Positions 3,366-42,764 of a stretch of 64,000 nucleotides of DNA are shown in pieces (position 1 is the first letter of the stretch; each line of letters opens with the position of its first letter). This stretch comes from Patescibacteria group bacterium (GTDB lineage: Bacteria; Patescibacteriota; Minisyncoccia; Phycocordibacterales; PALSA-1337): NCBI GenBank assembly GCA_024654575.1, contig JANLHG010000020.1:55991-119990 (forward strand). The letters run 5' to 3'. A program made the translations under genes and the position numbers. The notes beneath the pieces were generated by a model, which saw only the letters and a list, made by a program, of their open reading frames with translations, did not search any database and was not told the DNA's origin.

Positions 3366-3519
3366 TTTCTGTTTTAAAAGTGAGGGACCAAAAAAAATTC
3401 CGCAAAAAATTACAGAAAATGGGATTGTAGTTTTTAATAATGAGATGTATTATTAAAGAGTTAGTAAAATTGAATATAGTAATCTAAATCAGTGAGTAAT
3501 CGCTGACATGATGAAAAGT

Positions 3520-3587
3520 CCAGACACGGGTAGAAAACCTATCATATTAGGATCGCCGTGTCTGGCCGTACCAGAGAAATTTGGTAC
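3520..3587 (+). promoter_or_regulatory. Two adjacent perfect hairpins (CCAGACACGG-N26-CCGTGTCTGG; GTACCA-N8-TGGTAC) in the leader of the 3642.. gene
   Basis: 10-bp and 6-bp perfect inverted repeats read directly from sequence. Confidence 0.35.
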
Positions 3588-3641
3588 TGGAGAACCGAAA
3601 GGAACTCGCTTAATGTGGTAGGTTTTTTGCGTGTAGAAATT

Positions 3642-11048: not shown

Positions 11049-11981
11049 TTATGAAGGCTTTTTTTCTGATGTATCGATTTTCATATTCTCTATTTTCTCA
11101 GGACCAACATCTTGAATCTTTGCTTCCTCCTTTTTGGTTGGGAGAATCTTATCTATAATTTCAAATATCAATTCTGTAGGTACAACCCTTACTAATCCTG
11201 TTTGTTCAGTAAATACTATCCGTGGTTCTCCTGTCTGTTGGCTAATAGCAATATCAGAGTAGGTTTCTCCAGAACTAATAACTCCAATTAATCCTGCCGA
11301 AGAATTACTTTGAGTGCCTGTAATCGCCACTACCTCAGGCTTGTTGATAACAGGACCTCCACTATTTCCAGGATAAGCAGAGGCATCTATATAAAAGAAA
11401 CAATCTTCTAATACTTCTTCATCAACTCTAGCTATTATCCCTTGTCTCACAATTACGAAATTTCTTGTCTTGCCACTTATGCGCATCGGAAATCCAAGCA
11501 CAAACAATCCATCTCCAGTTGAAATATTTTCTATTGAGAAATCTTTAGCATAAAATATACTGTCCTCTCTAAAAAAGTAAAAATTTATTTTTGCATCATT
11601 AATTGCTACAGCATTAATAGGAAGAACAGCTAAATCAACTTTTTCACTCTCATGCATAAGCCAAAGAGGACTTTTGTCCTCTTTTAATAAAGGTACTTTA
11701 AAGTAATGACTTTTACTATCTAGGGTATTAAACCTAAAAAAGACTTCCTTTAATAGCTCTTTTGTTTTTGGATTTTGGAAAACATGTCTATTTGTTACAA
11801 CAAATAATTTAAAAAGGGGTTGTTTTTGATCATTTTCTCCCACTTTCTTACCAACTAAAAATCCTGTTGCAATTGAAATTTTACTTAATACTCCAGTAGT
11901 GTCTTTATTTTCTACCTCAATTGATACAACTGAATTTAAATATTGTGGTGGTATTAGAGACATAATTTCTATTCCTCCCAA
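11049..11981 (-). CDS. trypsin-like (S1 family) serine protease
   Basis: catalytic triad context TNRHV (His), DLAVL (Asp), GNSGGPV (Ser). Confidence 0.7.
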   Translation of the reverse strand: MGGIEIMSLIPPQYLNSVVSIEVENKDTTGVLSKISIATGFLVGKKVGENDQKQPLFKLFVVTNRHVFQNPKTKELLKEVFFRFNTLDSKSHYFKVPLLKEDKSPLWLMHESEKVDLAVLPINAVAINDAKINFYFFREDSIFYAKDFSIENISTGDGLFVLGFPMRISGKTRNFVIVRQGIIARVDEEVLEDCFFYIDASAYPGNSGGPVINKPEVVAITGTQSNSSAGLIGVISSGETYSDIAISQQTGEPRIVFTEQTGLVRVVPTELIFEIIDKILPTKKEEAKIQDVGPEKIENMKIDTSEKKPS

Positions 11982-14482
11982 AGTTTAGCTAGGGTGTCTT
12001 TAGTCTTTTGTTCATAAATCTCGATCAGTTTTTTATTACCTTCGACGAGAGTACGCTCCGATTCAATACGTTCCACGATTTGTTTTTGAATTCCGAGAGG
12101 TGGAAGAGGAATTTCAAAGCTAGAAACTTGGGCCAAAGATAAATTACTTTGAGCAACGCCCACTTTCAAACCAAGAATTTGGTTCTGAATCATATCTGAT
12201 CTTAAAACTTGTTCGAGGTATTTTGAATTTAGTTCTTTTTTTGGTGAAATTATTGCAAGTGCTTGGTTAGTATTGGCAGGTAATACAGAAGAATCTACCA
12301 AAGCAACTCGTCCAAGAGCGCCGGCGATTGAAAACAAGACATCATTTTCTTCCAACTGAGATCGTTTTAGAGATTCGTTACATTTCTGATTTATATGGGC
12401 AAATTTCTTCTTGATAAAATATCCATCATTATCAATTGATTCTATTTTAATAAAGTTAATTCCACTTTCTTGAAACTCAAATCCATTTGTGGTGGGAGTT
12501 GTCCCTTTTGTTACTCTGTTTGATACTTCTTCTAATTTCACCTTCTTCCACGAAGGATCAATTACTATGATTGGCTTCCAACTTGAAATGATTTGCTTAG
12601 CGCCGGCGATGATGTTTTGGTAGCCGTCTAGTTCAGCGACAATTTGCTGTTGGATTTCTAATGGCGGAATAGGAATTTTTTGATTTGCAATAGTTACATG
12701 CCCTAAATGCTTTTGAATCCCGCCCTTCATTTGCTGTTGTAATAAACCTTGGAATAAATCACTCTCCAGAATATTAAAGAGATATTTTTGATCCACCTTG
12801 TTTTTATCAAAAGAAATTCTAAATAAATTATTGCTTAATATCCCTGGAACAGCCATAAAAGCCCTGCCTGGTGTGCCGGTATTTGCCATAACAAGGTCTT
12901 CAACAGTGACTTCCTTGGTTGCATATATATCTTTAACATAAATTGATTTATCCTCGCCTTTAAAATCTTGTATATATAAATACCTTTTGTAACCACTTCT
13001 AAATTCATTTAACTGCTTTTCTTTAGGTATTTGTACACCCTGAGTAAATTCACAAACATCCCCCAACCTAACTATTGGCCATTTGGCATTGGTGTAATCT
13101 GTTGCTATGCGATAGCGATCTCCAGAAAGATTGTAGTCGCCAGATTCAGTAATCTTTTCTTTTTTCACTAACCAAGCAAAAAAACTACCGTCAGATATAA
13201 GTTGATTTTTTGTTCCCGTTTCAATAGCAATTTTCTGTGCTTTAAGAACATCAAGAGCTGCACCATCATCAGTTAAATCATTTATATGACTATCAGGAAG
13301 TGGTCGTCGACGAGCACCTAAATCAAAACCATCACTTTCAACTTTAATAAATAATATCTCATCTGTTTTCTTTGCTATCTCATTATCAAAAAATAGAATA
13401 CTGGTCTTTACTCCTGCATAAGGATTAAATACACCTTGTGGTAAAGAGACAACAGCATAGAGTCCATCTTCTACAAGATTCTTACGAAGTTGCTTATGTG
13501 CTGTACCGGACTGAAAAATAATACCTTCGGGAACAATAATACCTGCTCGGCCTTGAGGCCTTAGATGGTTCATTATGTAATCCACAAATAACACTTCGGA
13601 CCGGCTAGACTGAATACTAAACTTACTATGGGTGCTAACCCCGCCTTTTGGCGACATAAATGGGGGGTTGGCGAGAATTACAGAGAATTTGTCGCCCCAA
13701 CGTTCATCCATAGAGAGCGTGTCATATTGAAATATTTTTGGATTCTTGAATTGGTGTAGATACATATTGACTTGAGCTATACGGACCATTCCAGGGTCTA
13801 TGTCGTAGCCTTCAAAATTACCCATCAAGTTTTTACGCTGATCAGGGGTCAGAGGTTTTTCCTTTTTCTTTGGATCATTTTTACCGTCGTGTTGCTCGAG
13901 TATGTGTTTGTAGGCACTCACCAAGAATCCTCCAGTACCGCAGGCAGGGTCCAATACTTTGTCTTCCTGTGTCGGATCTACTACATCCACCATAAAATCA
14001 ATAATATGGCGTGGGGTGCGGAATTGTCCCGCATCGCCTTGAGATGACATGATAGAGAGCAGATATTCGTAGGCATTACCCAATTCTTCGGGGTGTGAAT
14101 AATCAAAGTAATTAATTTCCTTCAAAAATAAGCCTAGCACTTCAGGGCTTCGATACGGCAAAAATGCGGACTTAAAAATCTCACGAAAAAGTTGTGGAAG
14201 TTGTTTTGATTCAGAAAACTTTATAAGGGCTTCACTATAGATATTCATTCGCTCTTGATTGCCTATACGAGTATCAGCAAGACGAGTCCACGCATACTGC
14301 TCCAAGTCGCCTACAAAGAACGAGGGATCTCCACCCTGCTTAATCGCAGACTGGTCCATATCATCCATAAACTTGTAGATAAGAGCATTGGTGATCTGAT
14401 CTATTTGAGAAGTTGGATTTGGGACCACGCCGACAAGGACTTGGCGAGCGGCGTCTATATGTCTTTTTGTTTCGGTGTTCAT
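11969..14482 (-). CDS. hsdM/hsdS: Type I restriction-modification fused HsdM (N6-adenine MTase) - HsdS (specificity, two TRDs) polypeptide
   Basis: DPACGTGGFL (motif I), NPPF (motif IV); C-terminal half has two target-recognition domains with conserved spacers IPIPPLEIQQQIV and IPLPPLGIQKQIV; single 837-aa ORF. Confidence 0.85.
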   Translation of the reverse strand: MNTETKRHIDAARQVLVGVVPNPTSQIDQITNALIYKFMDDMDQSAIKQGGDPSFFVGDLEQYAWTRLADTRIGNQERMNIYSEALIKFSESKQLPQLFREIFKSAFLPYRSPEVLGLFLKEINYFDYSHPEELGNAYEYLLSIMSSQGDAGQFRTPRHIIDFMVDVVDPTQEDKVLDPACGTGGFLVSAYKHILEQHDGKNDPKKKEKPLTPDQRKNLMGNFEGYDIDPGMVRIAQVNMYLHQFKNPKIFQYDTLSMDERWGDKFSVILANPPFMSPKGGVSTHSKFSIQSSRSEVLFVDYIMNHLRPQGRAGIIVPEGIIFQSGTAHKQLRKNLVEDGLYAVVSLPQGVFNPYAGVKTSILFFDNEIAKKTDEILFIKVESDGFDLGARRRPLPDSHINDLTDDGAALDVLKAQKIAIETGTKNQLISDGSFFAWLVKKEKITESGDYNLSGDRYRIATDYTNAKWPIVRLGDVCEFTQGVQIPKEKQLNEFRSGYKRYLYIQDFKGEDKSIYVKDIYATKEVTVEDLVMANTGTPGRAFMAVPGILSNNLFRISFDKNKVDQKYLFNILESDLFQGLLQQQMKGGIQKHLGHVTIANQKIPIPPLEIQQQIVAELDGYQNIIAGAKQIISSWKPIIVIDPSWKKVKLEEVSNRVTKGTTPTTNGFEFQESGINFIKIESIDNDGYFIKKKFAHINQKCNESLKRSQLEENDVLFSIAGALGRVALVDSSVLPANTNQALAIISPKKELNSKYLEQVLRSDMIQNQILGLKVGVAQSNLSLAQVSSFEIPLPPLGIQKQIVERIESERTLVEGNKKLIEIYEQKTKDTLAKLWEE

Positions 14483-14486
14483 AGTT

Positions 14487-14936
14487 TTACATTATTCCTT
14501 TAAATTGTTCTTTTGTCTGTCCTATACTTTCACTGGCATTTTTCCCATCAGCCGAATATAATTCCTTCCAATCATATTCTCTAAAATTACTTTTCTTTTT
14601 CCACGATGAATATTCGTCATAAGAAATAGGGGGTTGTGGAGAATTACCATTTAGGCTAATCAGTGGAGTTTCTGGTTCAATCTTTTTAAGATACGCTACC
14701 GCATCTTCTCTTTTTGAAAAATGATTTATTGTAAAAAGAGGGTAACGATTACAATTCCTATATGTTGCAACGCACCATATAAAATCAGTTGGCGGTTGCT
14801 CATGATAGATCTTTGTCCAAACGGCTCCATCAGCGTTAGGTTCTATTTCAACTGTCCCTTTACACAAATACAAGACAAAAATTCTGTCATCAAAATAATT
14901 CTGTCCTTGAAATTCAATTGTGTTTAGGTGATTCAT
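14487..14936 (-). CDS. hypothetical protein inserted between hsdR and hsdMS
   Basis: ORF 149 aa, 2-4 nt spacing to neighbours. Confidence 0.4.
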   Translation of the reverse strand: MNHLNTIEFQGQNYFDDRIFVLYLCKGTVEIEPNADGAVWTKIYHEQPPTDFIWCVATYRNCNRYPLFTINHFSKREDAVAYLKKIEPETPLISLNGNSPQPPISYDEYSSWKKKSNFREYDWKELYSADGKNASESIGQTKEQFKGIM

Positions 14937-14939
14937 ATT

Positions 14940-17507
14940 TTAATTCATAAAAGTGTTAAGAGACACATAATCTTTTACATATGTAGGGACTGTAGTCTTG
15001 AAGCCATTGAGTCTCTGATATTCTTCGAAATCAAATGAGGCGCAAAAATTAAGCTGTGCTAATTGCTTAGTCTCAATAATCTCTCGAACTTGCGGATCTA
15101 CTATATATGCTTTGAAAAAGCTTTTAACTGGCGCATAGTGCTCTTGATCTACTGTATTTACTTCCGTGAATTTACTCCATTCTGATTCAAGTAACTCATC
15201 TTTGGATTCAAAATTACTTTTCTGTCCAAAAGCGACCTGTAGAAATTCACGAATAGTAATGCGACGATCAACATTAAAAGTTTTTCTAATTCCTTGTAGA
15301 TTAAGAAAGTGATTTGGTTTGTCGAAAATGTTGGTTTTAGTATAGTCTTCAGCTGCTGCTACGTCTCCATTATTCCAAAGGTTCTTTAACGTTTCGTTGG
15401 CAAGCACATCTTCTTCTACAGCACGCTTGAAGCCTTCGCGGTCAATACGCATACCTTCGGAGCCAATATGTTTTTCTGAAATTGTAGCAAGCTCATCCTG
15501 TGTAGCTAAATCTATTGGGCCTTTGAAAATATTAGTGCCATCTTCGTCAACGAATATATCTGAACCACCGGAATCTTTACCAGTTGTTGTATCAGTTTCT
15601 TTTATCTTCTTAATCTTCGGAAGTTTAATCTTTTCGTCATATTTAAATTCATTTTCAAAATATTCACAAGTAGCAAAAAAATCAAAGAATTTGAAATGTT
15701 CTTTATGTTTTGTGATAGTTTCTTTTGTTGCATAATCAATATATTCAAATTGATATTTTCTTGTGCCTCTTCCTTTAATTTGCACAAACTCCGCAGGGCT
15801 AAACACTGGACGCATCAGTGCTAAGTTTAAAATATCTTGACAGTCATAACCTGTAGTCATCATTCCAACAGTAACCGCTATGCGACTTTTACTAGAATCA
15901 TAACCCTCAGGACTTTTAACTTTGCCATTAAGCATATTATTAGAGAAGTTAATGGTCATTTGTTGAGCATTTTGGACCAAAGAAGTCACTTGCACGGCAA
16001 AATTTGATTCACTGTATTGTTCTGGCCATTTTTCAAAAGCCAGTTTGTTTAATATATTAGTTATTCTTGAAGCATGCTTTTGAGACACACAGAAAACAAT
16101 TGATTTTCCAAACAAGTCCAAATTATATTTTTTAGCAACAGGATCAAAGAGTCCGTTATCTATAAACGCTTTACACATTGCGATATTAGTTTCTTCGTTA
16201 AAGAATTTTCTTTCGTAATGACGTTCATTAAACACTTCGTTGATTGTCTCTCCTTGCTCTGTGGTGGAATGGACCGCATAACCATCTTCTGAGAGAAGTT
16301 CTGTGGTAATATCTGTGCGAGCGTCTACTACTATAGGATTTATAAGAAAACCATCTTTAACACCTGAAAGTAAATCATAGCTGAATGTTGGTTTACCTGA
16401 CTCGCATCCGAATGTCTTATATGTATCTAATAACTGTCTTCGTTCAAACTCTCTCTGTGTATCCGCACCTTCGCCATCAAATCCTTTGAGATAGTTTTTT
16501 GGCGTTGCGGTAAGTCCTAATTTATAGCCCACAAAGTATTCAAATACCGCACGACTGTTGCCACCAATGGACCTATGACTTTCATCACTGATAGTCAATT
16601 CAAAATCTGTAGGCGAAAATTCTTTTTTATACCTATCACCCGCAAGAAATGTCTGAATAGTAGAAACCACAATTTGAGCATTACGCCATGAATCACGGCT
16701 ATCTTTGTAGATAACACTAGTGTAATCCTTTCCTAAATATTGTTTGAAAGCTTTTTGTGCTTGTTCCTCAAGCTCTATGCGATCGACTAGAAATAGGATA
16801 CGACGAGCATTACCTGATTTAAGAAATAATTTTATGACTGCGGCAGAAATAAGCGTTTTACCAGTCCCAGTAGCCATTTCAAATAAGAATCTATTTTTAT
16901 TTTCAAATGCAGAAGATTGTAAACTTTTAATTGCCCCAACTTGATATGGACGCAATTGTTTAAGGTTATTATTATGTAGAAATTCTCGTTTCTTTGATTC
17001 GTCTTTAAAATCAGGATCATTAGCATAGCTAGGCATTTGCGATTCAATAATATAGTTTTCGTCTACTTTTGTACTAGCTAGTTCTGAAGGATTAGGAATA
17101 TATTTTTCATATTGTGTAATAGATTCTTGTGTTGGAAAACGGGAAATAGTATCAGGATTGCCATGTTTTGTATCCCATAAATAATGAATGTTGCCATTGG
17201 ATAATATAACGAATCGAGCATTTACAGTACGAGCATAATTTTTAGCTTGATCTTTAGCCGAAAGTGGATCGATCGATTCTTTCTTTGCCTCTACTACAAC
17301 AAGAGCCCTGCCGTCTTTATCTAAAAGAAGAAAATCAATAAATCCGTGCGTCTCTTGTTCAAAGTCGTCTCCAAGTTCTGAATACTTTACTCCTGGCTCA
17401 AGTTCAATATTAGCTTTTCCATTTTTATCATCTTCAAAACGCCATCCTGATTCTTCAAGCAGTTTGTTTATCTTAATACGAGCCGATGCTTCTTTTAATT
17501 TCATCAT
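14940..17507 (-). CDS. hsdR: Type I restriction enzyme R subunit (PD-(D/E)xK nuclease + SF2 helicase)
   Basis: N-terminal FIDFLLLD...VVVEAK nuclease motif; MATGTGKT Walker A; DESH; TATP. Confidence 0.85.
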   Translation of the reverse strand: MMKLKEASARIKINKLLEESGWRFEDDKNGKANIELEPGVKYSELGDDFEQETHGFIDFLLLDKDGRALVVVEAKKESIDPLSAKDQAKNYARTVNARFVILSNGNIHYLWDTKHGNPDTISRFPTQESITQYEKYIPNPSELASTKVDENYIIESQMPSYANDPDFKDESKKREFLHNNNLKQLRPYQVGAIKSLQSSAFENKNRFLFEMATGTGKTLISAAVIKLFLKSGNARRILFLVDRIELEEQAQKAFKQYLGKDYTSVIYKDSRDSWRNAQIVVSTIQTFLAGDRYKKEFSPTDFELTISDESHRSIGGNSRAVFEYFVGYKLGLTATPKNYLKGFDGEGADTQREFERRQLLDTYKTFGCESGKPTFSYDLLSGVKDGFLINPIVVDARTDITTELLSEDGYAVHSTTEQGETINEVFNERHYERKFFNEETNIAMCKAFIDNGLFDPVAKKYNLDLFGKSIVFCVSQKHASRITNILNKLAFEKWPEQYSESNFAVQVTSLVQNAQQMTINFSNNMLNGKVKSPEGYDSSKSRIAVTVGMMTTGYDCQDILNLALMRPVFSPAEFVQIKGRGTRKYQFEYIDYATKETITKHKEHFKFFDFFATCEYFENEFKYDEKIKLPKIKKIKETDTTTGKDSGGSDIFVDEDGTNIFKGPIDLATQDELATISEKHIGSEGMRIDREGFKRAVEEDVLANETLKNLWNNGDVAAAEDYTKTNIFDKPNHFLNLQGIRKTFNVDRRITIREFLQVAFGQKSNFESKDELLESEWSKFTEVNTVDQEHYAPVKSFFKAYIVDPQVREIIETKQLAQLNFCASFDFEEYQRLNGFKTTVPTYVKDYVSLNTFMN

Positions 17508-17578: not shown

Positions 17579-17787
17579 TAATTTTAAATATATAAATGAA
17601 TCAAAGTAATAGCCATTACTCAGTCTTTCTTTAAACGCTCTCTAGCTACATCTTTAACCAAATCAATAAGAGTATATTCTTCACCAAACCCTTTCTCTTT
17701 TCTTTTCTTTTCCAATCCAGTTTAGTGAAGGCATATTTTAATCTTACCAGTTTTTATATCACATTACTACCACCTATTGACACTATT

Positions 17788-17873
17788 AAAAATTTGGTGT
17801 GCAACTAAAAATTTATCCCCTTTTTTTGATTTTTTTCTTTGAAGCAACCACCCACATTGCTATAATTTAACAT
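17788..17873 (+). promoter_or_regulatory. Copy 1 of ~85-bp conserved promoter element (GTGCAAC...TTTATCCAC...TTGAAG-17-TATAAT)
   Basis: near-identical copies at 37660-37738 and 40338-40420; contains TTGAAG -35 and TATAAT -10 with 17-bp spacer and upstream A/T tract. Confidence 0.5.
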
Positions 17874-18222
17874 GTTGAGTACTGAAATATAATTTTATCT
17901 TTGTTTGTCTAATTTCTTCTCGTTAGTTACTGTAAATAATCGGTAATTAACGGGAGGGCGTTAGAAGGTAATACAGTCAATCCCTCAAATATACTGTAGT
18001 CAAGCATAGACTTAAAAAGCACTGCAAATGAAAACAAAATTTGCAAGATGTTTTCCACTTCCAGACGGCAACATGTGTTGCAAACATTGGAATGGAAACT
18101 ATATCGTCTTTCCCATGAAAGGAGATCATCGTTCAAGAAACGAAAAATCCCCCAATGAGGAGGACGATTCGGAAGAATAAACTACCAAATTTATTTTTCA
18201 ACCCACATTTCAAATTGAAGCG

Positions 18223-18476
18223 TGGGCAGAGGAAGTAATATAAAGCATGATTGGCTCTATAACTTAATGGATAAAGCAACAGATTAGTAATCTGTATCCA
18301 TCACAGGATGATTTATTCTTAAGTCATGATCTCGGTTCGAATCCGAGTAGAGCCGTTTTACTTCCTCTGTCCACTCTTCAAATTTTATAAAGAACGAAAA
18401 ATTACCCCATTTGGGGTGTGAACTAATCTTTTTATTAGAGTAGAATCATGTTTCATTTTTATCACCATATTAAATA
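18223..18476 (+). repeat. Repeated tRNA cassette copy 1: 16-bp inverted repeats (TGGGCAGAGGAAGTAA / TTACTTCCTCTGTCCA) flanking the tRNA-like gene plus ~100-bp conserved tail with CCCCATTTGGGG hairpin
   Basis: second copy at 38076-38313 with the same IRs and >90% identical tail but a different embedded tRNA-like sequence. Confidence 0.55.
18253..18355 (+). tRNA. atypical tRNA-like gene (103 nt): canonical acceptor, D arm (G18G19), anticodon arm (loop UUAGUAA) and T arm (GGTTCGAATCC), but a 35-nt insertion at the variable-arm position
   Basis: manual fold: GGCTCTA/TAGAGCC acceptor, ACAGA-TTAGTAA-TCTGT anticodon arm, CTCGG-TTCGAAT-CCGAG T arm; identity unresolved. Confidence 0.45.
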
Positions 18477-18709
18477 AACCGCGTATGTGTATCGTATTTG
18501 TTACTATATTAACGATACATTCAGTACAGGTACATTATACTATACGGCTAGTTACATAAAAGCAAGTTTCTGGGGAAAACACACATTCTAGGATATAAAA
18601 TATGAAATAAGTATGAATTATTAGTTTATGTCAATATAAGTTATACAATGCTAGTAAAATTAATATTTGGTACGATAACAACAAATGGATAGTTTTGCAT
18701 TAAACATAG

Positions 18710-19354: not shown

Positions 19355-19769
19355 AAGTTGTGTAATTTTAAAAAAAGTATTACCGATAATTATTCCACAT
19401 TTTTGGTGTTTTTTCCACTTTATTTGCTATAATACTATTATGTTTATATTCCTTATTGGCTTATTTTGTTTTTTGTTGGTTATAGGATTTTTTGCGACAA
19501 GTGGAGAATCTTCATTATCTTTTGCTGTTATGGCTATGATTGCACTTGGGGCACTAGCTTTTGTGGGGTTTATTGGAATGATGGCTTATATGTTTGTTTC
19601 TCATTGACGATAAGTAAAAAATATATGGACCAAGAAATATATCGTTTAATGCAGGATCATGGTATTGATAAAGACATTGCGGAAAAAACGCAGGAGCTTA
19701 TTGATGATGGATTGAGTGAAGACGAGGCGGTTGAAATTGCAGAGGATATGTAGTTTGCTATAATACACA

Positions 19770-34833: not shown

Positions 34834-35610
34834 TTATTTATTGTAATTTTGTATTCGTTTGTTTGCTAAATCCACATATTTTTTTTCTTTTTCGATTCCA
34901 ATCCAGTTTCTCTCAAGTGCCTTTGCGACAACAGCTGTCGTGCCACTTCCTAAAAATGGGTCAAGAATTAAATCACCTTTTTTACTAGAAGTTAAAATTA
35001 CTTGTTGAATAAGTTTTAATGGTTTTTGTGTGGGATGTGATTTTATTCCATTTTCATCTCGTAATCGTTCCTTACCTTTACATAAACCAAACACCCAGTC
35101 AGTATCTTTCATTTGTTTTCCACCGTTTATTTTTTTTAAGAAATCATTATTAAAAGTGTAATTTTTACAATTTTTATTTTTTACAGCCCAAATTAAAATT
35201 TCGTGATTATTTGTAAATCTTCTACCATTAAAATTTGGCATAGCATCAGTTTTGACCCAAATCACATCATTTAAAAACCATAACCCTAAGTCTTGCATAA
35301 TTTTACCAACTCGAAAAACATTATGGTACATACCCATTACCCAAATCGTTCCAGTTGGTTTCAATATTCTTTGACATTCTTTAATCCAATTACCTGTAAA
35401 AGTATCGTAATCTTCATAGCTTTCAAATTTATCCCATTCATCATTTACAGGAATTACTTCCGTTCCGTTTTCTCGTATAAGTTTTCTATTTTTCGGCAAT
35501 TGTAAATTATATGGTGGATCAGCAAAAATTAAATCAAAACTATTATCAGGAAATGTTTTTAATACCTCTAAACAATCACCATAAATTATGGTATTAACTA
35601 TTTTTTTCAT
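34834..35610 (-). CDS. beta-class DNA methyltransferase (N6-adenine or N4-cytosine)
   Basis: FADPPYN (motif IV) before SHPTQKP and LDPFLGSGTTAVVA (motif I): circularly permuted beta order. Confidence 0.8.
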   Translation of the reverse strand: MKKIVNTIIYGDCLEVLKTFPDNSFDLIFADPPYNLQLPKNRKLIRENGTEVIPVNDEWDKFESYEDYDTFTGNWIKECQRILKPTGTIWVMGMYHNVFRVGKIMQDLGLWFLNDVIWVKTDAMPNFNGRRFTNNHEILIWAVKNKNCKNYTFNNDFLKKINGGKQMKDTDWVFGLCKGKERLRDENGIKSHPTQKPLKLIQQVILTSSKKGDLILDPFLGSGTTAVVAKALERNWIGIEKEKKYVDLANKRIQNYNK

Positions 35611-35630
35611 AAAAATACAATAAAACCAAA

Positions 35631-36425
35631 CTATTCATCATATCTAATTTTTTTATATAGATTATCAAATATCTCAATTATTTCTTTATCTTCACTAACT
35701 TCTTTTAAGTAACCATCTAAATCTTCATATCTTATTGAAAAAAATTTATTAAATAAATCTGATCCACGACTTATATAATTCTTTTCTGGAACATAAATAT
35801 TACCTTTCATTCTTTTATAATTAAAGTAATATAGAATTGGTTTTAGATCATTAATATCATTTATTTTTAACTCTTTTACAAGACCTGCATAAGTCTTTAT
35901 GAATTTTCTATTAATATCTACAAACTTCCCTGTATCATGGTCATCATTATATTTAATTTCTAAATAATAATATTTTTTATCTTTTTTATCTTTAAATAAA
36001 CAATCTATATCATGTTTGTTTTCGATAAGATGTACTTTCTGTTTTTGTTCTCGGATAATATCATTTAAAAGTTTTTCAAATTTTTCTGTCAATTTATCAT
36101 CAGTATTATTTTGGCTATTTGATATAAACTTATCTATTATACTATCAGTATTTTCTGTTAAAGATAATTTAATATTCTTTTTACCAGAAAGATGTGGAAT
36201 TATTTCTAGATTTTTTTCTGACTCAACGATTTTATGTATTAATACTTCTATAAAATTACCAAATTGAATATTTAAAGATTGTAATAATCCACCAAAAACA
36301 CGATATTTAACGGGAACAAAATGTAACTTAACTTCGTGTTTTTTTGTTATTAAACCTATTTTATTTTTATTTGACGTATTATTTAGAAGTTCAATAACAG
36401 CGTCCTTTATTAATTTTTTAATCAT
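35631..36425 (-). CDS. putative Type II restriction endonuclease (no recognisable motif; positional inference)
   Basis: 264-aa ORF sandwiched between, and overlapping by 4 nt with, two MTase genes. Confidence 0.4.
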   Translation of the reverse strand: MIKKLIKDAVIELLNNTSNKNKIGLITKKHEVKLHFVPVKYRVFGGLLQSLNIQFGNFIEVLIHKIVESEKNLEIIPHLSGKKNIKLSLTENTDSIIDKFISNSQNNTDDKLTEKFEKLLNDIIREQKQKVHLIENKHDIDCLFKDKKDKKYYYLEIKYNDDHDTGKFVDINRKFIKTYAGLVKELKINDINDLKPILYYFNYKRMKGNIYVPEKNYISRGSDLFNKFFSIRYEDLDGYLKEVSEDKEIIEIFDNLYKKIRYDE

Positions 36426-37498
36426 ATTTTTAAATAAGTGTTTATATAATCCTGTCTTAAATCGTTGATCAGTACAAGTTGTCCTCTACGTTTAATATAC
36501 CAAAATGTCCAACCGTTATTTGTTTCTTTATTTAATAATCTAGCACTAACTTTATGAATTGATCCAATTTCCTCATTTGATGATAAGGTCGAATCTGCTA
36601 ATACTACCGCCTTTTTATCTCCATTCTTTAAATAAAGATTTTCACCAACATTAATTAAACCAGACTCAACTAAATTACCAAATGGAACTTTGGGATTTCT
36701 TGACTCAATCGGATATAGTAGTAGTTTTTCATCAATTAATTTAACTTTTTTTATTCTATCATTTGCTACTTTTATATAAAAATTCTCTTTTTCTATCCCT
36801 ATAAAATTTCTTCTCATTTTTTTTGCTACAGCTCCAGTTGTGCCACTTCCCATAAAAGGATCTAAAATTATATCTCCAATATTTGAAGTTGATAATATTA
36901 TTCTATAAAGTAAAGCTTCCGGTTTTTGAGTTGAATGAGCTTTATTTCCATTTACTTTTATTCTTTCTCCTCCACTACATATAGGTATGTACCAATCACT
37001 TCTCATTTGTTTATCATCGTTGAATGCTTTCATAGATCTATAGTGAAAAGTTGATTTAGACTTATCACTTTTTGATGCCAGAATCAACGTCTCTTGTGCA
37101 TTGTTAAATCTCGTACCTTTAAAATTAGGCATTGGATTAGTTTTAATCCAAATAATGTCATTCAATATCCAAAAACCAATGTCTTGCATAATTTTACCAA
37201 CTCGAAAAATATTATGATAACTACCAATAACCCAAATTGAACCATCTTTTTTTAAAACTCTTTTACATTCTAGTAACCAACTATAAGTAAACTTATCGTA
37301 GTCATCGAAAGAAGGAAATTTATCCCACTTATCATTTACTGCACTTACTTTAGTTTGATTGGGTCTATAAAGATCACCTTTTAGTTGTAAATTATATGGT
37401 GGATCAGCAAAAATAAGATCTACAGAATTTTCTGGTAATTTTTTAAGAGTTTCTATACAATCACCTTTTATTATTGTATTTAAATATTTCTTATCCAT
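36422..37498 (-). CDS. beta-class DNA methyltransferase with C-terminal extension
   Basis: FADPPYN, STQKP, LDPFMGSGTTGAVA; ~120-aa C-terminal extra domain. Confidence 0.8.
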   Translation of the reverse strand: MDKKYLNTIIKGDCIETLKKLPENSVDLIFADPPYNLQLKGDLYRPNQTKVSAVNDKWDKFPSFDDYDKFTYSWLLECKRVLKKDGSIWVIGSYHNIFRVGKIMQDIGFWILNDIIWIKTNPMPNFKGTRFNNAQETLILASKSDKSKSTFHYRSMKAFNDDKQMRSDWYIPICSGGERIKVNGNKAHSTQKPEALLYRIILSTSNIGDIILDPFMGSGTTGAVAKKMRRNFIGIEKENFYIKVANDRIKKVKLIDEKLLLYPIESRNPKVPFGNLVESGLINVGENLYLKNGDKKAVVLADSTLSSNEEIGSIHKVSARLLNKETNNGWTFWYIKRRGQLVLINDLRQDYINTYLKI

Positions 37499-37659
37499 AA
37501 ATTTTATAATCTAATTCTACTGTATGTTCAAATGAAATCATATTTTTGTGAAATTACAGATTTTCAATATAATTATTCTTACTCCATATTATTTCATATT
37601 TTTGAGTTTTTTTCTAGTCAGTTATTTTGAAAGCATTTGTTTTGACAAATACAATAATT

Positions 37660-37738
37660 CAGCGTGCAACCTAAAATTTATCCACATTTTTTGATTTTTT
37701 CTTTGAAGTTATACACCTACATTGCTATAATTTAACAT
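37660..37738 (+). promoter_or_regulatory. Copy 2 of conserved ~85-bp promoter element
   Basis: see 17788-17873. Confidence 0.5.
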
Positions 37739-37875
37739 ATTAGGTATTGAAAATTGAAATTTGTAATTTCTCACTTAACATCTAAATTTGGATTTTGAGT
37801 GAGGAATTAGAAATCGTGACAGCATCCTCTCCATCGTTGACTTGAAATACGAATTGGATAAATAGTCAAAAACCT

Positions 37876-37989
37876 ATGAAAATAGGAAGAAGTGCTAAAA
37901 CTGGAAAGTTTGTTCCAGTGAAAAAGGCTCGAGATAACCCATCTACATATGTAGTGGAAACAATCAAGCCCCAGAAAAAAAGAAAATAG
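37876..37989 (+). CDS. possible 37-aa basic peptide in the leader between promoter copy 2 and tRNA-like gene 2
   Basis: MKIGRSAKTGKFVPVKKARDNPSTYVVETIKPQKKRK; followed by AAATAGCC...GGCTATTT hairpin; weak RBS. Confidence 0.25.
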   Translation: MKIGRSAKTGKFVPVKKARDNPSTYVVETIKPQKKRK

Positions 37990-38075
37990 CCCTCGTGTTC
38001 AAACAAAAGGCTATTTTCTAAAAAATTAATATAAACTTTCTTACGAATTTTTATATACCCATACCTTTTGAAGGT

Positions 38076-38313
38076 TGGGCAGAGGAAGTAACACAAGTGA
38101 TTAGGATCTGTGATGAAATTGGTAGACATAATGATTTATCATATCATCGCCGTACAAGCATGCGAGTTCGAATCTCGCCAGATCCACAATTACTTCCTCT
38201 ATCCACTCTTCAAATTTTATAAAGAACGAAAAATTACACCATTTGGGGTGTGAACTAATCTTTTTATTAGAATAGAATCACGTTTCATTTTTATCACTAT
38301 TTTAAACAAACCG
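38076..38313 (+). repeat. Repeated tRNA cassette copy 2 (IRs at 38076-38091 and 38190-38205 plus conserved tail)
   Basis: see 18223-18476. Confidence 0.55.
38104..38186 (+). tRNA. tRNA-like gene (83 nt) with type II (Leu-like) architecture: 3-bp D stem, D-loop AAATTGGTAGA, 14-nt variable region; anticodon loop UUAUCAU
   Basis: GGATCTG/CAGATCC acceptor, ATGAT-TTATCAT-ATCAT anticodon arm, GCGAG-TTCGAAT-CTCGC T arm; anticodon identity ambiguous. Confidence 0.5.
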
Positions 38314-38433
38314 TATATATATGTCATACTATTACATGAGTATATTATACTAATCATTTAGACAGTTTATGATAAAAAACTGTGGATAACTATCCTATAT
38401 TACATTAACGAATAAATCAACTTTAGAACTCCC

Positions 38434-40270: not shown

Positions 40271-40337
40271 TTACCTACTATATATCAAAACACTTATTTT
40301 GTCAATCAACCGAAAGATATACTAAAATTGACACTCG

Positions 40338-40420
40338 GAAAAATTTGGCGTGCAACTCCAAATTTATCCACATTTTTAGATTTTTTTCTTTGAAGTTAAT
40401 GCTTACGCTGATATAATTTA
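40338..40420 (+). promoter_or_regulatory. Copy 3 of conserved ~85-bp promoter element, 30 bp upstream of nrdJ
   Basis: see 17788-17873. Confidence 0.5.
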
Positions 40421-40451
40421 TTAAATTAATAGATTGATTAAAAAATAATAT

Positions 40452-42764
40452 ATGAAATCAAAAAGGAAATCTACAGCAACAGAGACAGTTGTAAAAAATA
40501 TTCAAAAAAGAGACGGTACTGTTGTTCCTTTTGATGTTCAAAAAATCACTAATGCTATCAACAAAGCAATGCTTGTTGCTAGCGAAGGTTCTTTAAAAGA
40601 AGCTGGAATGGTTGCGAATAAAGTATACGCAGATGCTGTTAGAATAACTAAAAAATATAAAAATTTCATACCGACTGTTGAAGGTATTCAAGATACAGTA
40701 GAAAAAGAACTTATTTTAAGCGAATATGTTAAAACTGCTAAACACTACATTATTTATAGAGAAGAAAGGTCAAAACTTCGGGAAAAAGGATTACGCGTGC
40801 CTGCAAAAGTCAAAAAATTAGCGGAAGATAGCAAAAAATATTTTAGAAACTCACTTGGAGAATTTGTTTATTACAGAACATATTCAAAATGGATTGATAA
40901 CGAACAAAGACGAGAAACTTGGATTGAAACTGTAGACCGTTATATGGCTTTTATGAAAGAAAATCTTGGTAATAAATTGAAAGAAACTGAGTACAAAGAA
41001 GTACAAGAGGCGATTTTAAAACAAGATGCTCTACCATCAATGAGATTACTTCAATTTGCTGGTACAGCAACCAGAACAACAAATGTCTGTGCCTATAATT
41101 GTTCTTTTATCGCACCAGAGTGTTTTCAAGATTTAGCTGAAATAATGTATGTTTTGATGTGTGGCACCGGAGCTGGATTTTCAGTTGAAAGTCAAAATAT
41201 CCAAAAATTTCCTCAAATCAATTTGCAAACTGGAAAAAAAATGCCAACTCATATAATTCCTGATAGCAAAGAAGGTTGGGCGGATGCTTTGGTTGTAGGA
41301 ATGAATGCTTGGGCTGATGGAAATGACATTGAATTTGATTTCTCACAATTAAGACCAGCTGGAGCTCGTTTAAAAACTATGGGTGGCAAGTCCTCTGGCC
41401 CAGACCCTATTAGAAAACTACTTGGTTTTACCAGAGAAAAAATGATTGCAAGACAAGGAAAGCGTTTAAGAAATATTGATGTGCACGATATCATTTGTAT
41501 GATTGGTGAATGTGTTGTGGCGGGTGGAGTCAGAAGAAGTGCTTTAATTTCCCTATCAGATTTAGATGATAATGACATAAGAGATGCAAAAAAGGGTGCT
41601 TTCTACAATACAGAACCACAAAGAATGCTTTCAAATAACTCTGCTGTCTACATGCAAAAGCCATCAAGTGCTGAATTTATGGAAGAATGGATAGCTCTTA
41701 TGAAATCAGGTTCTGGAGAAAGAGGAATATTTAACCGTGGTTCATTAGCCAAAACATTACCAGAAAGAAGAATAAAAGTTTTGAAAGAATACAAAAATTA
41801 TTTTGACGCATCTGGCACAACAATTATCGGTTCAATTGGTACGAATCCTTGTGGAGAAATAATTTTGCAATCAAAACAATTCTGTAATCTTACAAATGTT
41901 GTAGCGAGAGCTGGCGATACAGAAGATGCTCTTTTGAAAAAAATTAAAATAGCTACAATTATCGGAACTTATCAGTCTACTTTAACTAATTTTCCATATT
42001 TATCTAAGGGTTGGAAAATAAATTGTGATAAAGAAAGATTGCTTGGAATTGGTCTGGCTGGACAATGGGATTGTGATGTCGTGAGAAAGCCAGAAATACT
42101 TGAAAAACTAAAAAAGGAAACTATTAAAGTAAATAAAGTTTATGCTAAGAAATTTGGAGTCAGTGAATCCACTGCTATAACTTGTGTAAAACCAGATGGA
42201 AATTCTTCACAAACTTTTGATTATTCTTCAGGAATGCATCCGCGACATTCAAAATACTACATTAGAAGAGTGAGAATTGCGGCCACTGATTCCCTATTTA
42301 AAATGCTTCGAGATCAAGGTGTACCATATTTCCCAGAAGTGGGACAATCTCTTGAAAACGCCACAACCTATGTATTAGAATTCCCAGTTAAAGCTCCATC
42401 AGGGTCAATTTTTAAAGAAGATTTAACTGCCATAGACCAACTTGAGCATTGGAAAATGGTAAAGATAAACTATACCGAACACAATCCTTCAGTGACTATA
42501 TCGGTTGGAGATGATGAATGGATAGAAGTAGCAAATTGGGTTTATAAAAATTGGGATATGATTGGTGGACTTTCTTTTCTTCCAAGAGAAAAGCATATTT
42601 ATCAACTCGCTCCATATGAAAAAATTGATGAGAAAAGATATCTTGAATTATCAGAAAGATTTAAAGATTTAGATTATTCAAAAATAATAACTTACGAAAA
42701 AACAAACGAACTTAATGTCAAGAAAGAGCTTGCTTGCGTAGCTGGTGTTTGCGATATAATGTAA
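40452..42764 (+). CDS. nrdJ: class II (adenosylcobalamin-dependent) ribonucleotide reductase with N-terminal ATP-cone
   Basis: ATP-cone VVKRDGTVVPFDVQKITNAI; active-site GTNPCGEI; C-terminal CVAGVC; no nrdB nearby. Confidence 0.75.
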   Translation: MKSKRKSTATETVVKNIQKRDGTVVPFDVQKITNAINKAMLVASEGSLKEAGMVANKVYADAVRITKKYKNFIPTVEGIQDTVEKELILSEYVKTAKHYIIYREERSKLREKGLRVPAKVKKLAEDSKKYFRNSLGEFVYYRTYSKWIDNEQRRETWIETVDRYMAFMKENLGNKLKETEYKEVQEAILKQDALPSMRLLQFAGTATRTTNVCAYNCSFIAPECFQDLAEIMYVLMCGTGAGFSVESQNIQKFPQINLQTGKKMPTHIIPDSKEGWADALVVGMNAWADGNDIEFDFSQLRPAGARLKTMGGKSSGPDPIRKLLGFTREKMIARQGKRLRNIDVHDIICMIGECVVAGGVRRSALISLSDLDDNDIRDAKKGAFYNTEPQRMLSNNSAVYMQKPSSAEFMEEWIALMKSGSGERGIFNRGSLAKTLPERRIKVLKEYKNYFDASGTTIIGSIGTNPCGEIILQSKQFCNLTNVVARAGDTEDALLKKIKIATIIGTYQSTLTNFPYLSKGWKINCDKERLLGIGLAGQWDCDVVRKPEILEKLKKETIKVNKVYAKKFGVSESTAITCVKPDGNSSQTFDYSSGMHPRHSKYYIRRVRIAATDSLFKMLRDQGVPYFPEVGQSLENATTYVLEFPVKAPSGSIFKEDLTAIDQLEHWKMVKINYTEHNPSVTISVGDDEWIEVANWVYKNWDMIGGLSFLPREKHIYQLAPYEKIDEKRYLELSERFKDLDYSKIITYEKTNELNVKKELACVAGVCDIM

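Follow-up and report, generated by a model that had tools for sequence, protein, structure and literature searches.

The locus examined here raises a simple question: why does the same kind of intergenic sequence precede both a ribonucleotide reductase gene and two tRNA-like genes that are unrelated to each other? The window (the whole 64,000-nucleotide stretch that was analysed) is cellular and bacterial, carrying rpoA and genes for ribosomal proteins S4, S11, S9, L13 and L17, DnaK, GrpE and AlaS, and the homologues of its NrdJ come from Patescibacteria/Paceibacteria MAGs.

The preliminary description had reported three copies of a conserved element of about 85 bp, and all three are indeed present on the + strand. 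The core GTGCAACNNNAAATTTATCC occurs exactly three times in the window when three mismatches are permitted, compared with 0.30 occurrences expected from shuffled sequences (no shuffle reached three), and a profile HMM built from the copies finds the three sites with E values from 4e-26 to 2e-22 and no other match in the window. The element is conserved as claimed, but its true length is about 104-111 nt, owing to a TTGACA block 16 nt 5′ of GTGCAAC; the aligned segments are 17777-17887, 37642-37752 and 40328-40438, all on the + strand, and their pairwise identities are 69-75% (ungapped). The blocks kept in every copy are TTGACA, GTGCAAC, AAATTTATCC, a T-run, CTTTGAAG and TGnTATAATTTA, and changes fall mainly in the spacers. 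The layout is as follows:

17777-17880, + strand: promoter copy 1 (profile match)
17777-17782, + strand: TTGACA, copy 1
17799-17805, + strand: GTGCAAC, copy 1
17813-17821, + strand: box TTATCCCCT, copy 1
17822-17838, + strand: T-tract, copy 1
17839-17844, + strand: -35 TTGAAG, copy 1
17858-17859, + strand: TG, copy 1
17861-17866, + strand: -10 TATAAT, copy 1 (predicted start ~17873)
37642-37745, + strand: promoter copy 2 (profile match)
37642-37647, + strand: TTGACA, copy 2
37664-37670, + strand: GTGCAAC, copy 2
37678-37686, + strand: box TTATCCACA, copy 2
37703-37708, + strand: -35 TTGAAG, copy 2
37726-37731, + strand: -10 TATAAT after a TG, copy 2 (predicted start ~37738)
40328-40431, + strand: promoter copy 3, native nrdJ promoter as judged from the profile match and the orthologous elements in the related loci L001 and L077
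40328-40333, + strand: TTGACA, copy 3
40350-40356, + strand: GTGCAAC, copy 3
40364-40372, + strand: box TTATCCACA, copy 3
40390-40395, + strand: -35 TTGAAG, copy 3
40412-40417, + strand: -10 TATAAT after a TG, copy 3 (predicted start ~40424)

The 17-bp spacer given earlier for all copies is correct for copy 2 but not for copies 1 and 3, where -35 and -10 are 16 nt apart. The T-run of copy 2 is one T shorter than those of copies 1 and 3, but its 17-nt spacer offsets that loss, so that every copy has 40 nt between the TTATCC box and the -10.

A diverged, partial fourth copy is found at 19382-19433 (+ strand), reading TTATTCCACATTTTTGGTGTTTTTT...TGCTATAAT (also as TTATTCCACATTTTTGGTG...TGCTATAAT). 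It is without the TTGACA and GTGCAAC blocks and terminates 6 nt 5′ of an ATG at 19440, an arrangement that suggests a leaderless mRNA for a hydrophobic (probably small membrane) protein of ~55 aa in the region 19382-19607. Outside the window, the 23-base core had no exact-pattern match in the genome and metagenome contig collections (where the window's own contig is absent). The looser 17-base core had at least 120 matches in the contig collections; after profile filtering, only L077 was real among the matches listed, and those rejected were chance matches, for example to eukaryote-like TAACC repeats. The genome, metagenome and viral scans gave no further copies of the element among the matches listed. 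Rfam covariance models found nothing credible on the element at E values up to 5; the tRNA model alone matched, downstream of it.

The element is probably a sigma70-type promoter, as judged from its core. In every copy the -10 matches consensus at six of six positions and carries a TG extension (TGCTATAAT in copies 1 and 2, TGATATAAT in copy 3), and the -35, TTGAAG in all three, matches at four of six; with the -35 at 16, 17 and 16 nt, the sequences have the features of the extended -10 class. The sigma70-like core of the preliminary description is borne out by the related nrdJ upstream regions, 21 of 22 of which have TGnTATAMT at the equivalent place (when anchored on the -10), and in closer-clade relatives the -35 reads TTGAGT, TTGAAG or TTGAAA, 17 nt 5′ of the -10. 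RNA polymerase holoenzyme would use TGnTATAAT plus TTGAAG, and transcription would begin about 7 nt past the -10, that is, near 17873, 37738 and 40424. Each copy is oriented towards the unit downstream of it, as had been proposed, and we found no + strand terminator-like site in between, including between copies 1 and 2 and their tRNA-like genes. The divergent minus-strand genes have candidate promoters of their own outside the element, such as TTGACA-17-TATAGT at 40305-40277.

Two of the accessory features suggested earlier found little support. The supposed UP-like A/T tract is a T-tract that agrees poorly with the UP consensus, an insertion of ~10 nt peculiar to the clade of the window. In this clade TTGACA is 83 nt upstream of the -10, against 73 nt in most relatives. 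UP elements have the consensus nnAAAWWTWTTTTnnnAAAnnn at -59 to -38. In a comparison of copy 3 (40365-40386, TATCCACATTTTTAGATTTTTT) by hand with this consensus, only the TTTT core of the distal subsite fits, the proximal A-tract being replaced by Ts. Nor does GTGCAAC look like a regulator box comparable to those of NrdR, as it is kept in the closest relatives only and is without NrdR-like features. It lies at about -74 and the TTGACA block at about -96, and both are conserved in all three copies. A second promoter with the far-upstream TTGACA for its -35 was dismissed, because no acceptable -10 follows this block at 16-18 nt in any copy or relative (inspected by eye). The TTGACA and GTGCAAC blocks are partly complementary (TTG-A-CAC / GTG-CAA); a hairpin or palindrome formed by them was considered and rejected, since there is some covariation (CAC/GTG, CAT/ATG, ACAGCC/GGCTGT) but the spacing is inconsistent (15 vs 21-22 nt).

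Where, then, did the element come from? All three copies sit in divergent intergenic regions, with the following surroundings:

Copy 1: hsdR to the left (- strand); downstream (+ strand) a ~380-nt leader, then a tRNA-like gene
Copy 2: N6/N4 methylase with a RAMA domain to the left (- strand); downstream (+ strand) a ~370-nt leader, then a tRNA-like gene
Copy 3: DEAD-box helicase to the left (- strand); downstream (+ strand) nrdJ
40452-42764, + strand: nrdJ-type class II ribonucleotide reductase with an N-terminal ATP-cone, downstream of copy 3

In L001 and L077, two relatives with a 93%-identical NrdJ, the series TTGACA-16-GTGCAAC-7-TTATCCCC-40-TATAAT stands directly upstream of nrdJ, and the L001 element is 81% identical to copy 3. 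In L001 the place of the DEAD helicase on the left is taken by a PAP2 gene on the same strand; the element therefore travels with nrdJ and not with the gene to its left. In more distant Paceibacteria the element is found upstream of nrdJ in degraded form. The more distant relatives L002, L070, L012, L008 and L064 have the same block order minus ~10 nt of the T-tract, and the nrdJ promoters of L012, L070 and L002 give weak matches to the profile. Because orthologous elements sit at nrdJ in relatives, this comparison of sequences makes copy 3 the native promoter region of nrdJ and the ancestral form, from which copies 1 and 2 derive, a polarity that the preliminary description overlooked. Copies 1 and 2 additionally share ~25 nt past the -10 as well as the flanks of the cassettes described below, which points to the whole unit (promoter plus cassette) having probably been duplicated once more.

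Several other features of these neighbourhoods were recorded. Copy 1 adjoins a type I restriction-modification (R-M) cluster (11969-17507). Another R-M cluster abuts copy 2 and includes two paralogous N6/N4 DNA methylase genes (34834-37498; 73-78% nucleotide identity over parts) with a 264-aa ORF between them that has no family match and is probably a restriction enzyme. Elsewhere in the window, a LOOT RNA (Rfam RF03000, 57 bits) lies at 3481-3607, directly 5′ of HNH endonuclease and S49/ClpP-like protease genes in a prophage-like neighbourhood, and near-identical direct repeats bracket short gene blocks at 26181-26276/27254-27349 (97%), 26410-26508/27492-27590 (79%) and 20923-20973/21845-21895 (98%). 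Among the relatives, a near-palindrome, TTTAGTAATCAATTAACTACTAAA, starts right after the -10, in the nrdJ 5′ UTR, in L009, L010, L012-L016, L019, L021, L027, L047, L065, L067 and L070, and a divergent gene of the HTH_5 (ArsR) type often accompanies it. The window, L001 and L077 have it in degenerate form or not at all. A second regulator of nrdJ may use it as operator.

The units downstream of copies 1 and 2 are built alike:

17873-18215, + strand: leader of unit 1 (18-bp hairpin near its 5′ end; no supported ORF)
18215-18496, + strand: cassette 1
18215-18238, + strand: 5′ stem arm, cassette 1
18253-18355, + strand: tRNA-like gene 1 (103 nt; anticodon AGU; variable region ~34 nt; type-II-like body)
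18358-18385, + strand: 3′ stem arm, cassette 1
18404-18417, + strand: hairpin in the conserved tail of cassette 1, which runs to 18496
37738-38065, + strand: leader of unit 2 (15+5-bp hairpin)
38066-38328, + strand: cassette 2
38066-38091, + strand: 5′ stem arm, cassette 2
38104-38187, + strand: tRNA-like gene 2 (84 nt; anticodon AUC; long variable region, ~14 nt, as in type II tRNAs; tRNA-Leu-like body)
38190-38217, + strand: 3′ stem arm, cassette 2
38234-38253, + strand: hairpin in the conserved tail of cassette 2, which runs to 38328

Both leaders fold far better than shuffled sequences (z -6.7 each), with hairpins of 18-20 bp at their start; their small ORFs have no family support, the 37-codon ORF at 37876-37989 in the leader of unit 2, without a family match, included. 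The Rfam tRNA model scores the two tRNA-like genes at 54.8 and 50.7 bits, respectively, and both are non-canonical, with A34. Each is enclosed by a 24-26 bp stem formed from conserved flanks, and the tails that follow are 91-94% identical between units, whereas the tRNA-like cargos themselves are unrelated, so that the arrangement resembles a conserved cassette for processing or expression whose cargo can be exchanged. The tail hairpins could end the transcripts, in which case the units are predicted to run from ~17873 to ~18440 and from ~37738 to ~38270 as structured RNAs of ~0.5 kb, for which Rfam has no match except tRNA. Terminator-like hairpins with T-runs are also present on the minus strand inside both units (18165-18147, 18417-18404, ~38020-37975 and 38251-38236), as are promoter-like minus-strand sites in the conserved tail (e.g. 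38327-38299), and antisense or small convergent transcripts within the units are possible.

BLAST of the cassettes and leaders against all related loci found nothing beyond the window, and phage records held no relative of the cassette. One viral-contig match to the 3′ stem arm was discarded as chance, lying inside a GC-rich coding region, and a match in L027 as a coding repeat. The only other such architecture among the 69 tRNAs predicted in related loci is in L069, a distant relative, in the region 12330-12500. There a stem-enclosed gene of 84 nt (12375-12458; tRNA-Leu body, anticodon ACG) lies 100 nt past the nrdJ stop codon; its flanking stem is 13+15 bp (-37.8 kcal/mol). This is a second, independent link of nrdJ with stem-clamped A34 tRNA-like genes, seen in two genomes only. 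L069 also has, at 12563-12665, a box-type promoter (TTATCCACA, 23 nt, TAAAAT) beside the tRNA-like gene and nrdJ, which appears to drive a ~55-nt RNA ending in a strong hairpin terminator. Separately, tRNA-Ser genes with anticodon ACU, again with A34, are found in three relatives (L051 17329-17418, L053 16054-16143 and L056 15855-15943), and tRNAs with A34 may thus be more widespread in the group.

What could control these promoters? The best operator candidate, TTATCCACA, was already contained in the string AAATTTATCCNC that the preliminary description singled out, but its agreement with the DnaA-box consensus had gone unrecognised. That consensus 9-mer is TTATCCACA (PMC8203912), and the boxes of copies 2 and 3 match it exactly, at nine of nine positions; the box of copy 1, TTATCCCCT, matches at seven of nine and falls outside the relaxed consensus TTATNCACA. 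Copy 1 and many orthologues read TTATCCCC, which breaks the CACA core kept by E. coli DnaA boxes. Of the 200-nt regions upstream of nrdJ in 69 Paceibacteria loci, 20 contain the more general form TTATCC[AC]C, always in the same orientation, an enrichment of about 21-fold (binomial 1e-21, with related genomes treated as independent) over a background in these loci of 0.068 per kb per strand for intergenic DNA elsewhere; for coding DNA the figure is 0.026. One-mismatch forms (TTTTCCAC, CTATCCAC and TTGTCCAC) occupy the equivalent place in many other nrdJ loci. The distance from box to -10 takes three values: 23-25 nt in many lineages, where the -35 is poor and the position activator-like; 30-31 nt in L002, L008, L012, L064 and L070, with a good -35; and 40 nt in the clade of the window, again with a good -35.

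We favour an operator for a factor that binds as a monomer, since the box is one 9-mer without symmetry, of the kind to be expected for DnaA domain IV or a similar binder. The asymmetric TTATCC(A/C)C(A) box, 40 nt 5′ of the -10 and centred at about -56, would then be most probably a DnaA site, and DnaA there would couple the production of dNTPs to the initiator of replication, in the manner of E. coli nrdAB. As the specific binder of TTATCC(A/C)C, DnaA is nevertheless a tentative assignment, to which we give somewhat less than an even chance. DnaA control of ribonucleotide reductase genes is established at E. coli nrdAB and has been proposed in B. subtilis and Caulobacter (PMC8203912). Neither the window nor ~1.9 Mb of related loci contains a dnaA gene. 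An origin-like or DnaA-titration site was considered too, but is disfavoured by the single box in each copy and by the presence of three copies within 23 kb.

A rather unlikely reading, though the most probable of the alternatives, keeps the promoter as above and has the box bound by a factor other than DnaA, either a Paceibacteria nrd-specific regulator or a GTGG reader like MraZ. DnaA boxes do not typically vary between A and C at position 7, as this box does, and the variation fits such a factor. So does the distribution of the box-plus--10 arrangement, which among 97 box occurrences in 1.2 Mb is found solely in nrdJ neighbourhoods, as for a gene-specific regulator: directly before nrdJ, before the first gene of an operon that has nrdJ as its last (L051 and L054) and beside nrdJ in L069. 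That sample is centred on nrdJ, however, which biases the apparent specificity. A GTGG-motif array in L048 (7669-7770, between gyrB and mraZ), probably a MraZ operator, contains the nrdJ box in complement, as GTGGATAA and GTGGGGATAA, and with identical 8-mers at both places another GTGG-reading protein becomes possible at nrdJ. MraZ itself, though, needs at least three GTGG repeats with a 10-bp period (bioRxiv 10.1101/2022.02.09.479790), and the nrdJ promoters have one box. The exact fit of copies 2 and 3 to the DnaA consensus and the lone asymmetric 9-mer also speak for DnaA over another binder.

Taken together, we consider it likely that the element is a composite of a sigma70-type promoter and an upstream control region, native to nrdJ, that was propagated twice in this genome and carries a shared operator. 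The derived copies 1 and 2 would put structured tRNA-like RNA units under nrdJ-type control, because all copies keep their blocks at equal distances, and each ~0.5-kb RNA would include a tRNA-like gene within its stem and, after it, a hairpin resembling a terminator. Co-regulation of nrdJ and the tRNA-like units is a reasonable reading of this arrangement; the sign of regulation by the box factor at the element is something that we infer. The concentration of changes in the spacers, with the motif blocks fixed in distance, argues that function was selected in each copy, with purifying selection on copies 1 and 2 judged from three paralogues, no relative having been found with a tRNA-linked copy.

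Much less probable than this composite promoter is a repeat that is dispersed or mobile, whether MITE-like or a 'mobile promoter' of R-M islands. The regulatory blocks would then merely have been carried along, without meaningful co-regulation of the units. Copies 1 and 2 do adjoin R-M gene clusters, which are often mobile, and re-use of promoters between unrelated genes is documented (PMC3488235). An inverted repeat of 17-23 nt (37547-37569 / 37745-37773, the right arm lying within the leader hairpin) flanks copy 2, but copy 2 alone: the copies have no terminal inverted repeats or target duplications in common, so that the element is not the IS or other terminal repeat that the preliminary description had named as its refutation. 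Moreover, the copies number only three, with no further ones among the matches listed in the genome, metagenome and viral scans; at 69-75% identity their changes fall in spacers while every block holds its distance; and the element is orthologous at nrdJ in other genomes.

Two further readings are extremely improbable. The element might encode a 23-codon peptide (a leader or small ORF), from the GTG of GTGCAAC to a stop just past TATAAT, a frame that is open in copy 1, copy 2, L001 and L077 and whose length survives a compensated indel in copy 2, but the frame shifts in mid-sequence between copies 1 and 2, meets a TAG at codon 10 in the ancestral copy 3, is closed or without a start codon in L002 and L012, and has neither a Shine-Dalgarno sequence nor a usable -10 past the upstream TTGACA. 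The element might instead be an NrdR operator region, with boxes overlapping the promoter and all three units repressed, a comparison that the preliminary description had proposed and that the common repression of nrd genes by NrdR would favour. NrdR is the usual nrd-specific repressor in bacteria, and its box is a 16-bp palindrome with the consensus acaCwAtATaTwGtgt. Against that consensus, the best palindrome in each copy matches at only 10-11 of 16 positions, no better than shuffled sequences; the element is without tandem palindromes, and no nrdR gene was found in the window or related loci, which are genome fragments.

To our knowledge, almost nothing has been established experimentally on transcription control in CPR/Patescibacteria, and the element offers a concrete candidate promoter-plus-operator for an essential gene, nrdJ, in this group. 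Its cis-motif, conserved across the class at three discrete spacings, suggests that the DnaA-RNR link may extend to reduced genomes. The triplication defines a small putative regulon, through which the expression of two stem-enclosed tRNA-like RNAs would be tied to replication. A more far-reaching proposal, which we regard as distinctly unlikely, is that the DnaA-box nrdJ module was recruited for an undescribed class of ~0.5-kb RNAs with a stem-clamped (24-26 bp) A34 tRNA-like domain, encoded beside R-M systems, and that Paceibacteria couple replication and dNTP supply to their production; such special tRNA-like RNAs might then be recoding tRNAs, anticodon-nuclease decoys or primers. If the ordinary reading alone holds, the locus is a clear case of promoter re-use with an identifiable source.

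Among known systems, the nearest likeness is to E. coli nrdAB (PMC8203912), where an RNR gene is likewise preceded by a sigma70 promoter, a DnaA-box 9-mer just 5′ of the -35 and an A/T-rich tract. The gene here is the class II nrdJ rather than the class Ia nrdAB; there is one box instead of three, with no NrdR boxes; the host belongs to the CPR/Paceibacteria and the DnaA site is putative; and here the box/-10 distance varies by lineage and the module is triplicated. Putative mobile promoters (PMC3488235) are similar in that a promoter segment of ~100 nt precedes non-homologous units in one genome. Those are near-identical, whereas the copies here have diverged with their motif blocks selectively kept, the source promoter (nrdJ) is identifiable from orthologues, and the recipients are non-coding tRNA-like RNA units. 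The resemblance to MraZ sites lies in the GTGG motif of the box complement (GTGGATAA / GGGGATAA) and in the 8-mers shared with the region before mraZ in L048, and it stops at the single box per copy, where MraZ sites have at least three repeats at a 10-bp period. As for the core, TGnTATAAT with a recognisable -35 at 16-17 nt is that of an ordinary extended -10 sigma70 promoter, except that the T-tract upstream of it fits the UP consensus poorly. The element is thus of an ordinary kind, and its unusual part is the tRNA-like cargo of the two derived copies.
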